64,000 nt of DNA. Source: Bdellovibrionota bacterium (GTDB taxonomy: Bacteria > Bdellovibrionota_C > UBA2361 > OMII01). Below are positions 11,411 through 20,889 of this stretch, piece by piece (position 1 is the first letter of the stretch; each line of letters opens with the position of its first letter). The DNA is taken from assembly GCA_044360075.1 (NCBI GenBank), contig JBIKLA010000011.1:26668-90667 (forward strand), given 5' to 3'. Made by a program: the position numbers and the translations under genes. Below the pieces are notes generated by a model that saw only the letters and a program-made list of their open reading frames with translations, did no database searches and was not told where the DNA came from.

Positions 11411-11788
11411 TTACGCCGTTTGCTCCTTTTTAAAAAACAAGGCTTCGACCTGACAAGCCAAGTCCTTGAATTTACAAGGCTTTACAATCACTTTCGTGCA
11501 TCCTGCCTGCTCTGCCTCCTGGTGCGCCTGGGGATCATCGAGGGCTGTAAACGCCACAATCGGCACGGTAACACCGCGATTGCGCATCTCCCTGACGCAC
11601 GCCTGACCCGTCATCGCCGGCATCATCAGATCGATGATAATAACGTCCGGCCGCGATGACCCTAATTCGCGCAGGGCGGAGACTCCATCGCAGTGACGGA
11701 TAACCTCAAATCCGCGCCCTTCGAATATAGTGTTTACTATGTCGAGGGCCGACGCGTCGTCGTCGATGACAAGGATGCGGCTACTCAT
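11411..11788 (-). CDS. stand-alone response-regulator receiver (CheY-like) protein
   Basis: Receiver motifs ILVIDDD, phospho-acceptor D in IIIDLMMP, and the conserved T and K positions; 125 aa. Divergent from the T3SS-like operon. Confidence 0.8.
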   Translation of the reverse strand: MSSRILVIDDDASALDIVNTIFEGRGFEVIRHCDGVSALRELGSSRPDVIIIDLMMPAMTGQACVREMRNRGVTVPIVAFTALDDPQAHQEAEQAGCTKVIVKPCKFKDLACQVEALFFKKEQTA

Positions 11789-12023
11789 GGCAAAACCAGA
11801 TGGCGAAAGACAGCAGTCGCCCAGATTGTAACTATTACTCCCAATAGAGATGCATCTCTCGGGATCTAGGATACAAATTACTCCAGGCAGTTGAGCCTTT
11901 TAGCAATTTTATAAATATGTTTGACGCTATCTTCTTGAAAACTATGGACCGTTAGCCGATATGACCCCTTAGGAAGAAGTACTAGGGATTTCCCACTCTA
12001 TAAGTGCCCGAAACGGTTGTGTT

Positions 12024-12043
12024 CATTGCAGACGTCTGCAATG
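12024..12043. promoter_or_regulatory. perfect 20-bp palindrome CATTGCAGACGTCTGCAATG overlapping the ATG of the first FHA gene
   Basis: The sequence equals its own reverse complement. It lies at the head of the FHA/T3SS operon, directly after the AT-rich intergenic region 11789–12016. Confidence 0.6.
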
Positions 12044-13426
12044 AAGCGGAGCCCCTGGGCAAAGCGGATTGCGTGCATGTTTGCGCTTGAGATCACTTTT
12101 AAGGGCGAAAAGCCCTCCACGGAGACGGTTTTCATCCGTCGTCCGTTGGCTGTTATCGGCGCAGATGAGGCGGCGCACGTGATCGTCGATGAGATGCGCT
12201 CTCTCGGATACAACCTGCTTATTAGTCGCGATGTAGGGAGAAAGTTCACCCTCACGCCGATCAACACCTCAAGCGACGGCGCCCAACCCTCCTTTCTTGA
12301 CGGCGTCTACGAGGGGGAATCGAGTGTCGACCTCGGCCCGGTCAAGTTTCACTTCGTGGCGATCGATGGCGACCTGATGCTTCGTGAGACTGAGGCTCCT
12401 GATAGGGCTGGGGCGAGAATTCTGCGCCAGGCAGCAACGAGCAAGGCACCCCTGTACCCGGCGCTCATCGTCACCTCCCAGCCGCGCGTTGTTGTGTCGT
12501 TCTCTCCAGATCAGCCGGTGCTCGTTGGGCGATCGCGCCAATGCTCGCTCCGGCTCGATAATTCTGCTATCTCTTCGCGCCACGCCCGCGTCGGCTACGA
12601 GGGCGGAAAGTTTTGGGTGGAGGACCTGGGCTCAAGCAACGGAACCTTCGTCAACAACCAGCAGATCAGCGGCCGCGTTAACATAGACCCAGGCGCTCAC
12701 ATTTCGTTTGGCAAGGAGGTCACCGCGCGCGGAGTCGTATCCTCAGAGCAGGCCTCGGACGTCTCTGCAGGCGTAAGCCTCTCAAGCCCCAAGGCAGTCA
12801 GCAAGGAGAAGCGCTACCCGATTCTGGTCTCGCTCTCAGAGAGCGCCCGGCCGGCCAAGATTGTGCTCAATGCAGGTGCGGTCATCTCGCTTGGCCGGGA
12901 TCCGTCGAGCGACATGTGGCTCGGGGCTCCTCACGTGTCTCGGCGCCACTGTGCCGTCGAGGTGACGAAGAACGGCGTCGTTCGAATCACGGACTGCAGC
13001 ACTAACGGCACGGCTTACGACGGCGGCATGCTGCGCCGCGACCAAACTTTCGAAAGCTCCGACAAGCCAATCGTGCTCGATTTCGGGGGCAATGTGACTG
13101 TGGCCCTGTGCTTCTCGGAGAAGGACGAACAGGCGTTCACCAATGCGGGCGGCTCAAGCGCGACCTTCCGATTGCCACAGGGTGCGGAAGCAGCATCTTT
13201 CGGCAAACGTGCGGCGAACACCCGCTCGCGGCGGACAACCGCCTGGCTTCAGACCCCGGCGGAGCTCCTCGCCTTGGGAGAAGACACCGGCAAGCGTGGG
13301 GGCTTACGGCAGCTCTACGCGCGACTGTCCTGGCAGGGAAGGCTCGTGCTCGGACTGGCCGCCGTAGGATTAATAGGCGTGTTCGCCCTCGTAGTGGCTA
13401 TTTTAGTTTTGGGATTTCAGAGGTGA
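12041..13426 (+). CDS. double-FHA-domain protein with a C-terminal transmembrane anchor (SctD-like cytoplasmic module?)
   Basis: Two FHA signatures (GR..C...L......SRRHA...-N-SSNGTFVN and GRDPSSDMWLGAPHVSRRHCAVEV...TDCSTNGTAYDG). Single C-terminal TM segment (LVLGLAAVGLIGVFALVVAILVLGF). The ORF-track frame opens at TTG 12017; the ATG at 12041 is preferred. Confidence 0.7.
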   Translation: MKRSPWAKRIACMFALEITFKGEKPSTETVFIRRPLAVIGADEAAHVIVDEMRSLGYNLLISRDVGRKFTLTPINTSSDGAQPSFLDGVYEGESSVDLGPVKFHFVAIDGDLMLRETEAPDRAGARILRQAATSKAPLYPALIVTSQPRVVVSFSPDQPVLVGRSRQCSLRLDNSAISSRHARVGYEGGKFWVEDLGSSNGTFVNNQQISGRVNIDPGAHISFGKEVTARGVVSSEQASDVSAGVSLSSPKAVSKEKRYPILVSLSESARPAKIVLNAGAVISLGRDPSSDMWLGAPHVSRRHCAVEVTKNGVVRITDCSTNGTAYDGGMLRRDQTFESSDKPIVLDFGGNVTVALCFSEKDEQAFTNAGGSSATFRLPQGAEAASFGKRAANTRSRRTTAWLQTPAELLALGEDTGKRGGLRQLYARLSWQGRLVLGLAAVGLIGVFALVVAILVLGFQR

Positions 13427-13500
13427 CGTGCGGTTTTTGGCTAAGGGCTGTTCGTAAGGAACATCTACCGGTTTGTGTGATACTGAGTGAAAGGTGAACT

Positions 13501-19590: not shown

Positions 19591-19591
19591 A

Positions 19592-20188
19592 ATGAGTGAC
19601 GCCCTGGAGATCCCCAACGCGGAAAATCTGCGCACCCTTAAGGAGCAGGGGATTATTTTCAGCAGCCCGCTGGCGATCCGCCTCACAACCGTTGCCGTGC
19701 TTCTTTTGACGGGTGTCGCCCTGGCTCGCAACCCGGTTGGTCCCCTCGTCCCACCTGACCTGGCAACGGCACAGGAGCTCGGGCTGCACGCCCTGAAGGC
19801 AGCGGCGGCAGCTTCTACGGCGTGCGCTGGCACGATCCTGCTCCTGTCGCTCATTTTTAATGGCTTCTTCCTCTCGGCGGGACTCCTTTCTCCTCGAAAA
19901 AGGGGGCCGGATAAAATAAACCCACTAGTGCGCCTAGGGCAGGGAGCATTGGGGGCTGCGCTCGGGCTCGGGGCGCTCTTGGGCTGCTCAAAATCCCTCT
20001 TTGGGGCCCTGTACCTGGGATCGCAGGAAGCAGGGGGGCAGCCTGCAGGCCTGGCTTTGCTGCGGGCTTCGTTAGGAGCCCCATTCACTGCCGTCATTGT
20101 TGGAACTGTAATTTTGGCTATACTGGTGGCTGGAATCGCTCGGGCCCGATTCGTGTTGCGGAACCGGGTTGCGAAGTCATCATCATAG
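19592..20188 (+). CDS. sctU: SctU/FlhB-family export-switch protein, N-terminal transmembrane domain only (no autocleaving C-domain)
   Basis: FlhB N-terminus (E.P..ENLRTLKEQGII.SS.L) and the conserved K(I/L)NPL loop (PRKRGPDKINPLVRLGQG) between TM2 and TM3. The ORF ends after TM4; no NPTH motif is found in any frame downstream. Confidence 0.6.
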   Translation: MSDALEIPNAENLRTLKEQGIIFSSPLAIRLTTVAVLLLTGVALARNPVGPLVPPDLATAQELGLHALKAAAAASTACAGTILLLSLIFNGFFLSAGLLSPRKRGPDKINPLVRLGQGALGAALGLGALLGCSKSLFGALYLGSQEAGGQPAGLALLRASLGAPFTAVIVGTVILAILVAGIARARFVLRNRVAKSSS

Positions 20189-20206
20189 CGGCGAATAGGG
20201 CCTTGT

Positions 20207-20455
20207 ATGTCTAAAACGATCGGCGGTCCGCCGGATCCATTTTCTCTCTCCCCGTTGCTCTCTCTGCTTCCGTCACTGGGGAAGATCAGCCGGCTTGAGG
20301 CGCTTGTCTCATCGCTCTTCGCCCGAAGCGAGAAAGTCTCCGCCCTGAGGGCTCAGGCGGAGAGCAGGGAGCAGGAGCGCAGGTTTGCGGCCGAGGAGGC
20401 CATGCTTCGCCAGATACTCGATTGGCTTGCGGTGAAGCCCGGAGGTGCCGAGTAA
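20207..20455 (+). CDS. small helical hypothetical protein (82 aa)
   Basis: Coiled-coil-like C-terminal half. Its stop overlaps the start of the TPR gene (TAATG). Candidate co-chaperone (YscE-like), inferred from position only. Confidence 0.4.
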   Translation: MSKTIGGPPDPFSLSPLLSLLPSLGKISRLEALVSSLFARSEKVSALRAQAESREQERRFAAEEAMLRQILDWLAVKPGGAE

Positions 20456-20889
20456 TGGATATGCCGGCAAAAAAAGGCGCAGAGCTGCCGCGCCGAAGCT
20501 ATTCTGCAGACGAGGTTGCGGACATCTATGAGCTGGGGAAGCTTTGGCTTGAGTCCGGCCAGCTTAAGCGGGCCGAGGCGCTGATGACTGGCCTAAACGA
20601 GGTCGCCCCCGACTTTGCCCCGGCCTGGCTCGGAACGGCATTTCTGCGTTCAGTGTCGGGCGACTACGAGGGCGTTGCGGCAGCGGCGAAACGCGCTCTC
20701 AAGGTGAGCCCCGACTGTGTTGAGGCGATGATGTTCATGGCGGTGGCGGCTCTCGCCCTCAAGGACGTAACGATGGCGGGCACCTACCTCGGCGAGGTAG
20801 GCGACCGCATCGAGCAAGGGGTAGTCTCTAATCCCAGCGTCTCAAGGCTGTACAAGATGCAGCTAGCGCGGTATCAAAACCGCGATTAG
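20455..20889 (+). CDS. TPR-repeat protein resembling T3SS class-II / needle chaperones (LcrH/SycD or YscG type)
   Basis: About 145 aa containing three TPR-like helices (ADIYELGKLWLESGQLKRAEALMTGL...APAWLGTAFLRSVSGDYEGVAAAAKRALKVSPD...). Size and position are typical for injectisome chaperones. Confidence 0.55.
   Translation: MDMPAKKGAELPRRSYSADEVADIYELGKLWLESGQLKRAEALMTGLNEVAPDFAPAWLGTAFLRSVSGDYEGVAAAAKRALKVSPDCVEAMMFMAVAALALKDVTMAGTYLGEVGDRIEQGVVSNPSVSRLYKMQLARYQNRD

Follow-up and report, generated by a model that had tools for sequence, protein, structure and literature searches.

The operon at positions 12077-20889 on the forward strand of the window, by which is meant the whole 64,000-nucleotide stretch of Bdellovibrionota DNA analysed here (contig JBIKLA010000011.1), encodes the inner-membrane and cytoplasmic core of an export apparatus derived from type III secretion systems (T3SS), with no needle and no secretin. 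The reading put forward, to which a probability of about 0.6 is given, is that this locus represents one half of a Tad-linked, needle-less T3SS-like system of uncultured Bdellovibrionota, in which the export gate and the Tad machine act together. The ninth core part, SctV, appears in this lineage to have its gene at another place on the chromosome, immediately downstream of a Tad gene set, as judged for the window's own genome from its relatives.

Organisation of the operon

The listing of open reading frames (ORFs) together with profile searches delimited a conserved operon with a CheY-like receiver gene lying divergently beside it (11411-11788, reverse strand). The gene order is FHA protein 1, FHA protein 2, SctJ, a 74-residue protein (x74), a coiled-coil protein, SctQ, a DUF3313 lipoprotein, SctR, SctS, a candidate for SctT, the N-terminal domain of SctU, an 82-residue protein (x82) and a tetratricopeptide repeat (TPR) protein. 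Families were called at Pfam gathering cut-offs, and NCBIfam equivalog scores were compared with their curated cut-offs. The scaffold, ring and gate genes are as follows.

12077-13426, forward strand: FHA protein 1, SctD-like scaffold, 449 residues; PF00498 twice and PF16697 (SctD cytoplasmic domain, 55 bits)
13501-14742, forward strand: FHA protein 2, 413 residues; PF00498 at residues 335-399
14757-15611, forward strand: SctJ, inner-membrane ring lipoprotein; PF01514, 44 bits (cut-off 24.4)
16194-17231, forward strand: SctQ-like cytoplasmic ring protein; PF01052 twice (two C-terminal SpoA domains)
18178-18765, forward strand: SctR, short (195 residues); PF00813, 83 bits
18768-19010, forward strand: SctS, 80 residues; PF01313, 36 bits
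19012-19590, forward strand: polytopic membrane protein in the SctT position, 192 residues with five to six hydrophobic segments
19592-20188, forward strand: SctU/FlhB N-terminal membrane domain, 198 residues; hhalign 94.5%, E 7.5e-8, residues 2-200

An earlier reading of the same DNA made from its letters alone, hereafter the original prediction, had described an injectisome-type, non-flagellar, minimised export-apparatus operon with a non-canonical gene set, and this description is upheld. Every NCBIfam equivalog score obtained for the operon proteins falls below its curated cut-off. The FHA tandem at the head, SctJ, the double-SpoA SctQ, SctR, SctS and the TPR protein, all named in that prediction, were recovered with profile matches above the Pfam gathering cut-offs. 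It had also reported stop and start overlaps at nearly every junction. Tight packing was indeed found, with spacings of -4, 4, 0, 2, 1, 1 and -1 nucleotides (nt) at seven boundaries, 14 and 18 nt at two and 63-160 nt at three, but only two of these (-4 and -1 nt) are true overlaps.

Several gene boundaries were revised. The start of FHA protein 1, initially placed at 12017, was moved to 12077 on the basis of the conserved N-terminus MFALEITF, and the start of the TPR gene was corrected to 20455. The gene first proposed at 15835-16197 specifies an implausible Arg/Ser-rich product and was replaced by the real gene at 15837-16193, in the frame of the ORF beginning at 15813. For SctQ, a GTG start at 16194 (GVG) is backed by conservation over the full length. 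A scan for promoters and terminators gave no enrichment compared with shuffled sequences.

Scaffold and ring proteins

Alignment and a transmembrane (TM) scan of FHA protein 1 revealed a conserved N-domain, two FHA domains, which also pass the Pfam threshold for PF16697, and a single C-terminal TM helix; as a whole it is described as an SctD-like triple-FHA membrane protein. It ends about five residues past the TM helix, and the periplasmic ring domain of SctD is consequently absent, as had been predicted. FHA protein 2, which has orthologues in all relatives, consists of an N-terminal zinc ribbon of the CxxC...CxxC type, a long Pro/Gln/Arg-rich linker and one C-terminal FHA domain.

SctJ carries a lipobox (LGC), a TM segment at residues 215-242 and an acidic cytoplasmic tail at its C-terminus, and its best NCBIfam match is the SctJ model TIGR02544 (77 bits, below cut-off). 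In SctQ, residues 208-267 match the SctQ model TIGR02551 and residues 283-343 the FliN model TIGR02480, both below cut-off, and a sequence search of the PDB with this protein returned no match.

Export gate

SctR aligns with canonical SctR/FliP proteins through its PF..D and PLK..F..GW motifs and retains residues that are invariant in canonical gate proteins. The protein that follows SctS belongs to a family of 192-residue proteins located between sctS and sctU in every case. Its single-sequence AlphaFold2 (AF2) model is too poor to compare (predicted local distance difference test, pLDDT, 57), and a Foldseek search with it gave nothing meaningful. Its identity as SctT is therefore an unproven guess from gene position and membrane topology.

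The Pfam scan of the window's SctU protein gave no match, and its identity comes from profile-profile comparison. Because of the hhalign alignment given above and because the orthologues in two related loci (L166 and L080) match only positions 2-219 of the 335 positions of PF01312 and then end, the 198-residue protein is a SctU cut down to its membrane domain, without the autocleaving (NPTH) switch domain. The SctU membrane domain of the original prediction is thus borne out by both lines of comparison.

SctV and its linkage to Tad genes

Neither SctV nor SctN was detected in the six-frame translation of the whole window with locally built hidden Markov models (HMMs), which had been made from the FlhA/SctV and FliI/SctN genes of fetched loci. 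Among the window ORFs scanned, as well as in the gene tables of the related loci, no member of the secretin (SctC) or needle (SctF) families was found, and SctV, SctN, secretin and needle are likewise missing from the 10 kb beyond either end of the window. The statement that the operon lacks SctN, SctV, SctC and a needle accordingly agrees with the local HMMs and the Pfam scans, which were negative in the window. As a trait of the system, on the other hand, the absence of SctV did not hold, since SctV is encoded elsewhere in relatives, beside Tad pilus genes.

At the start of L014, a more distant related locus, lies the C-terminal part of a FHIPEP protein; a Ser/Thr kinase comes next and FHA protein 1 after that, and its sister L080 has the same order. 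A word-indexed search with the SctV fragment of L014 gave one match and an exhaustive search a few relatives, the best of which, P0027, is a 702-residue FHIPEP protein found on contigs L166-L169. These contigs hold a single cluster in the order PP2C, FHA, Ser/Thr kinase, TadZ, Flp, RcpC, TadA, TadB, TadC, SctV, Ser/Thr kinase/HEAT, FHA1, FHA2, SctJ, x74, SctQ, R, S, T, U, x82 and TPR. When P0027 was used as a query in turn, many SctV proteins of 40-59% identity were retrieved from Bdellovibrionota, Oligoflexia, 'Deltaproteobacteria' and 'Dadabacteria' metagenome-assembled genomes (MAGs).

In all seven relatives examined (P0027 and six others that were looked up), sctV lies directly after tadC, an adjacency that holds even where SctV identity falls to about 40%, and over a GC range of 38-58%. 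The six further SctV genes come after tadB-tadC and before the kinase/HEAT gene, and are followed by AhpC, tig, clpP, clpX and lon instead of the T3SS-like operon. Among the carriers of this Tad-SctV-kinase-AhpC locus are a complete chromosome of 2.28 Mb (CP129486.1) and five further lineages, one of 58% GC, close to the 60% of the window. The SctV relatives are full length with both domains and score higher with the SctV model than with the FlhA model, both scores being below the curated cut-offs. Also encoded at this locus are a PP2C phosphatase, Ser/Thr kinases and one more FHA protein.

The two halves occur together in one MAG, GCA_003696425.1, which has a window-type operon (L013, on RFHI01000114) and a Tad-SctV-kinase locus (L170, with SctV P0130, on RFHI01000064), each of 45-46% GC. 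Since the cluster is unsplit in earlier-branching relatives and its two halves are separate in this MAG, an ancestral supercluster appears to have been split in the window's lineage, where SctV would have stayed with Tad while the rest moved beside RNase G and gained the divergent CheY gene.

For the window's subclade, the probable counterpart is a tight group of SctV proteins with a high-GC amino-acid composition, to which the TadC-SctV-kinase-AhpC locus L180 (58% GC) belongs. Another candidate, P0187, originates from the same sample as the window contig and was rejected as the SctV of the window organism on its GC content of 52%, against 60% for the window.

A large protein of 763-826 residues always follows SctV (L166:12114-14495, L170:12256-14736, L173:5984-8299 and L180:2963-5407). 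In some lineages it contains a Ser/Thr kinase domain and faint HEAT repeats; in L173, L176 and L180 no Pfam kinase was detected, which suggests that it may have decayed there to a pseudokinase scaffold.

Conservation and selection

The gene order of the operon recurs in about 12 other species-level loci, and the arrangement is therefore not due to chance. A scan of GTDB species genomes placed the carriers of this clade among uncultured Bdellovibrionota MAGs, one of them labelled Dadabacteria, and the exact proteins of the window were found in metagenome assemblies only. For SctR, some 15 close relatives share 51-77% identity, and canonical SctR/FliP proteins follow after a gap, at E ~1e-10. 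Both the gene order and its context (mreB, RNase G ... sigma factor, gidB) are kept in L005-L013 and L081. In Pfam scans of the larger ORFs across the window, housekeeping genes were seen to flank the operon: prs, L25, pth, L9, comEC, mreB and RNase G at one end; at the other, sigma factors, gidB, proteases, BamA and LptFG. Of the 80 loci from a metagenome scan anchored on the FHA protein 1 alignment, 79 encode unrelated generic FHA proteins, leaving L081 as the sole useful one.

Ratios of nonsynonymous to synonymous substitution rates (dN/dS) were obtained from the closest pair, with dS between 0.3 and 0.8. The values are 0.03 for FHA protein 1 and the TPR protein, 0.05 for SctJ and x82, 0.06 for SctQ, 0.10 for SctR and x74, 0.19 for SctS, 0.24 for the SctT candidate, 0.26 for SctU and 0.35 for the coiled-coil protein. 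With dN/dS of 0.03-0.35, these genes are under purifying selection and are kept by it, and the operon is therefore not a relic.

The MAG GCA_003696425.1, which bears the label 'Candidatus Dadabacteria', shares the operon and its chromosomal context with Bdellovibrionota MAGs and has an RNase G 71% identical to theirs. For these reasons its label is probably a misclassification.

Proposed machine and alternative explanations

In the machine proposed here, the T3SS-like gate and the Tad machine would act as one envelope apparatus. SctJ, the SctD-like protein, SctQ, SctR/S(/T) and the SctU N-domain would assemble with SctV into an inner-membrane export gate, and the FHA domains may read Thr-phosphorylation set by the kinases and the PP2C phosphatase of the cluster, thereby triggering assembly or activation, as PpkA/PppA/Fha1 do for type VI secretion (T6SS). 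Because no ATPase is encoded in any locus seen, substrates would cross the inner membrane via SctRS(T)UV on the proton-motive force, with no dedicated ATPase, and the Tad pilus would then serve them as a way out or as a carrier. That SctU has no C-domain is in keeping with a machine that has neither a needle nor a need for a substrate switch. Given the Bdellovibrionota hosts, and by analogy with the Kil and T3SS* systems of Myxococcus, the likely role would be contact-dependent attack on other bacteria; contact-dependence, predation and any export activity are all inferred.

A bolder form of this proposal is offered tentatively, as a possibility with the odds against it. The Tad system and the minimal, ATPase-less gate would then form one composite machine derived from a single ancestral cluster, with SctV docking on TadB/C and with effectors or pilus-tip cargo crossing via SctRS(T)UV and exiting via the Tad pilus under the control of Thr-phosphorylation. 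Such a machine might represent Kil/T3SS* in a simpler shape, either ancestral or kept independently, as well as a surviving intermediate stage of non-flagellar T3SS evolution.

The needle-less, Tad-linked export system preferred here has to be weighed against the view that the T3SS-derived proteins no longer export and have been co-opted as an inner-membrane/cytoplasmic platform, or as a phospho-signalling hub, that positions or controls Tad. The lack of an ATPase, of the SctU switch domain and of recognisable substrates speaks for co-option, as do the position of the SctT candidate and SctU among the least constrained genes, the many FHA, kinase, PP2C and CheY signalling parts, and the retention of SctV beside tadBC rather than beside sctRSTU. 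However, SctR keeps the invariant gate residues, SctR, SctS, SctJ and SctQ all experience strong purifying selection, SctV is full length with both domains, and the pairing of a chaperone-like TPR protein with a small partner of high conservation is what export systems typically show; such a loss of export is consequently judged unlikely. An autonomous exporter directed to the periplasm, with the adjacency to Tad reflecting shared regulation or chance gene order, would suit the unlinked halves of the window's lineage and the proposal by Abby and Rocha that protein translocation by the secretin-less Myxo systems goes no further than the periplasm (PMC3459982). The tadC-sctV adjacency, constant in seven of seven lineages over the range of identity and GC content given above, is hard to explain without functional coupling and makes this explanation very unlikely.

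The two remaining explanations were rejected. A decaying remnant of a flagellar or injectisome cluster would agree with the lack of many core genes, the shortness of the proteins and NCBIfam scores that all lie below cut-off, but the conserved order of unbroken ORFs in about 12 species, the dN/dS values and vertical inheritance in a fixed chromosomal context leave a remnant highly improbable. That the operon is the flagellar export apparatus of these bacteria would agree with the fact that the FliP, FliQ and FliN models, too, recognise SctR, SctS and SctQ. However, the ring protein is a lipoprotein of the SctJ type and not FliF, an SctD-type FHA domain is present, and neither rod, hook, FliF MS-ring nor FliG/FliM switch families nor Mot genes were found in the window. 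Moreover, the MAGs with the window-type operon have, apart from it, a canonical FliP-FliQ-FliR-FlhB locus (L062:4366-10431, L060:1050-6923, L061:9596-15496 and L055:9593-13767). Because of the SctJ-type ring protein and of this separate locus, the operon is not the flagellar gate, and the flagellar explanation retains next to no probability.

Several observations nevertheless weigh against the Tad-linked export system. No ATPase gene (SctN) is listed in the gene tables or the homology annotation for the related loci, and SctL, SctO, SctI, a secretin or a substrate that could be recognised were likewise not seen at any locus. The protein that the original prediction took for a short SctT has no similarity to SctT/FliR detectable by Pfam, hmmsearch or hhalign, and this protein and SctU diverge much faster than the other parts (29-40% identity, compared with 55-58% for SctR). 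Neither the window nor the 10 kb on either side of it holds a Tad gene or SctV, so that the partner locus of the source genome is deduced from relatives, and the search for the window organism's own SctV got as far as the relative of 58% GC. The linkage of the two loci in one MAG depends on correct binning. Finally, the hosts are uncultured and their predatory lifestyle is assumed from the phylum.

Comparison with known systems

The operon had been singled out as the likeliest undescribed system in the window. No description of this architecture was found in the literature searched, and to that extent the claim stands, but the concept itself is already known from the secretin-less and needle-less T3SS of Myxococcales (PMC3459982) and from T3SS* acting with Kil (PMC12075869).

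The closest known analogue is the Kil (Tad) and T3SS* predation machinery of Myxococcus, which the present system resembles in concept and in parts. The T3SS* of M. xanthus (mxan_2434-2464) comprises SctD, J, I, Q, RSTUV, N and L together with LcrH-like chaperones (PMC10433427). Kil and T3SS* co-localise, the Tad-like pilus of Kil recruiting T3SS* to prey contacts, and prey lysis requires T3SS* (PMC12075869). Kil clusters encode many FHA proteins (PMC8460266). Both systems have a non-flagellar core without secretin, needle or translocon, parts of the SctD, J, Q, R, S, U and V type, and LcrH-like TPR chaperones; both are paired with a Tad-type machine (here by genomic linkage in relatives) and have FHA-rich clusters; and both are hosted by clades of bacterial predators, a lifestyle assumed here from the phylum. 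On the other hand, the present system has no SctN/SctL ATPase complex and no SctI in any locus seen, its SctU is devoid of the C-terminal domain and its SctD of the periplasmic domain, and the protein in the SctT position is unrecognisable. Moreover, the Tad and T3SS-like genes are here contiguous in some relatives or linked through tadC-sctV, whereas they form separate clusters in Myxococcus, Ser/Thr kinases and PP2C are embedded in the cluster, and the hosts are uncultured Bdellovibrionota, of another phylum.

The early-branching 'Myxo' non-flagellar T3SS loci described by Abby and Rocha in 2012, which have no secretin and no needle and keep the ATPase and the rod, are conserved and vertically inherited and were argued to be functional rather than relics (PMC3459982). 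They share with the present loci the lack of secretin and needle and the conservation, but retain the ATPase and inner rod, while the clade described here is set apart from all other SctR/FliP by a long branch and is Tad-linked. In a rough and not robust neighbour-joining tree of SctR, the clade stands on its own long branch, with Myxococcota loci as the nearest outside groups.

With the canonical injectisomes (Ysc/Inv-Spa/Hrc), the operon and its partner locus have in common homologous SctJ, Q, R, S, U (N-domain) and V, the cytoplasmic FHA domain of SctD and a TPR fold like that of PcrH/SycD; they differ in the absence of SctC, F, I, N, L, O, K, P and W, the translocon, the SctU autocleavage domain and the periplasmic ring of SctD. 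In the H1-T6SS of Pseudomonas (PpkA/PppA/Fha1), as here, a kinase, a PP2C phosphatase and FHA proteins are encoded within the cluster of a contact weapon; the machine differs and the likeness is one of analogy only. The comparison with Thr-phosphorylation in the T6SS was drawn earlier for Kil (PMC8460266).

How T3SS* cooperates with the Kil Tad pilus in Myxococcus still awaits an explanation, and the pairing had been regarded as limited to a single suborder of myxobacteria, a 2025 review noting that the co-occurrence seems restricted to Cystobacterineae (PMC12428579). The present loci add a second phylum with a leaner T3SS-like core, in which sctV is fixed beside tadC and the whole operon is fused in some lineages to Tad, kinase, phosphatase and FHA genes. 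They argue, independently and at the level of genomes, for a functional unit made up of the two machines, with SctV and TadB/C, as well as the FHA scaffolds and the kinases, as candidate contact points. They also supply a minimal list of parts, with no ATPase, SctU switch domain, SctD periplasmic ring, needle or secretin, and new taxa for rooting the evolution of non-flagellar T3SSs.

Small, accessory and regulatory proteins of the operon

The remaining genes of the operon and the divergent receiver gene are as follows.

11411-11788, reverse strand: orphan CheY-like receiver; PF00072, 87 bits, E 1e-24
15608-15832, forward strand: x74, core protein of 74 residues with no family; 4-nt overlap with sctJ
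15837-16193, forward strand: coiled-coil protein of about 118 residues, no family match
17392-18114, forward strand: DUF3313 lipoprotein between sctQ and sctR; PF11769, E 4e-14
20207-20455, forward strand: x82, core protein of 82 residues with no family
20455-20889, forward strand: TPR protein, three repeats, chaperone-like; TPR Pfam families

Two of these small proteins belong to the core. x74 is present in every relative, L014 and L166 included, and gave no Pfam, NCBIfam or PDB match in profile searches of the PDB and in Pfam scans of all members of the family. x82 is 68-77% identical across relatives and 40% identical to its counterparts in L014 and L080, and it had no match in Pfam, NCBIfam or PDB profile searches. 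By impression, x74 might be FliG-N-like and the x82/TPR pair SctX/SctY-like. Among the NCBIfam models, those for SctY (E 2.4e-5) and LcrH/SycD (E 6e-4) matched the TPR protein weakly, neither reaching its cut-off. Its AF2 model reached a pLDDT of 89.6, and Foldseek aligned it with PcrH (TMq 0.76) and SycD (0.73); generic TPR domains (CHIP, SGT) match equally. It probably acts as a chaperone or partner of x82, which may in turn be its client or partner.

The coiled-coil protein has homologues in L005-L013, the split-type lineage only, and not in L014 or L166, and the DUF3313 gene is limited to the window, L005, L008, L009, L010 and L081. Both are, on this distribution, taken as lineage-specific insertions and not as core parts.

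The orphan receiver divergent from the operon, announced as CheY-like in the original prediction, matches PF00072 and has an intact Asp pocket (DDD at 9-11, D53 and K103). Its position is conserved in the window-type relatives L006-L013 and L081; it is absent from L014, L080 and L166, where a SctV-kinase pair precedes the operon.

Second FlhB locus and neighbouring genes

In the canonical FliPQR-FlhB loci of L062, L060, L061 and L055, FlhB is split into two genes exactly at the usual NPTH autocleavage site. FlhB_N ends in '...RSKVVVV' (PF01312 positions 2-258) and FlhB_C starts near 'AVALGF' (262-332). A gene for a PAS-GAF histidine kinase of about 1030-1065 residues lies between the halves, an arrangement that amounts to a genetically 'pre-cleaved' FlhB.

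Downstream of the operon, the window encodes further proteins with no family. The first, at 20988-21596 on the forward strand, is a signal-peptide protein of about 202 residues conserved at 63-70% in relatives. It is followed at 21663-22664 (forward strand) by a poorly conserved protein of 333 residues. A third, of 788 residues (24335-26701, forward strand), was found in L005 only, at 40% identity. These three could be cargo or accessory proteins. On the reverse strand, positions 22711-24153 encode a 480-residue protein without a Pfam or PDB match, which is 68-76% identical in window-type relatives, where it is syntenic downstream of the operon, and is absent from L014-type loci.

Hydrolase genes are concentrated further along the window (33623-36052, 36123-37439, 38355-39863, 31080-32000 and 46457-47680). 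They comprise an S8 subtilase (809 residues), an M29 aminopeptidase, an M12B reprolysin-like metalloprotease, an MA-clan peptidase and a patatin phospholipase, a set that fits a predatory or scavenging lifestyle.

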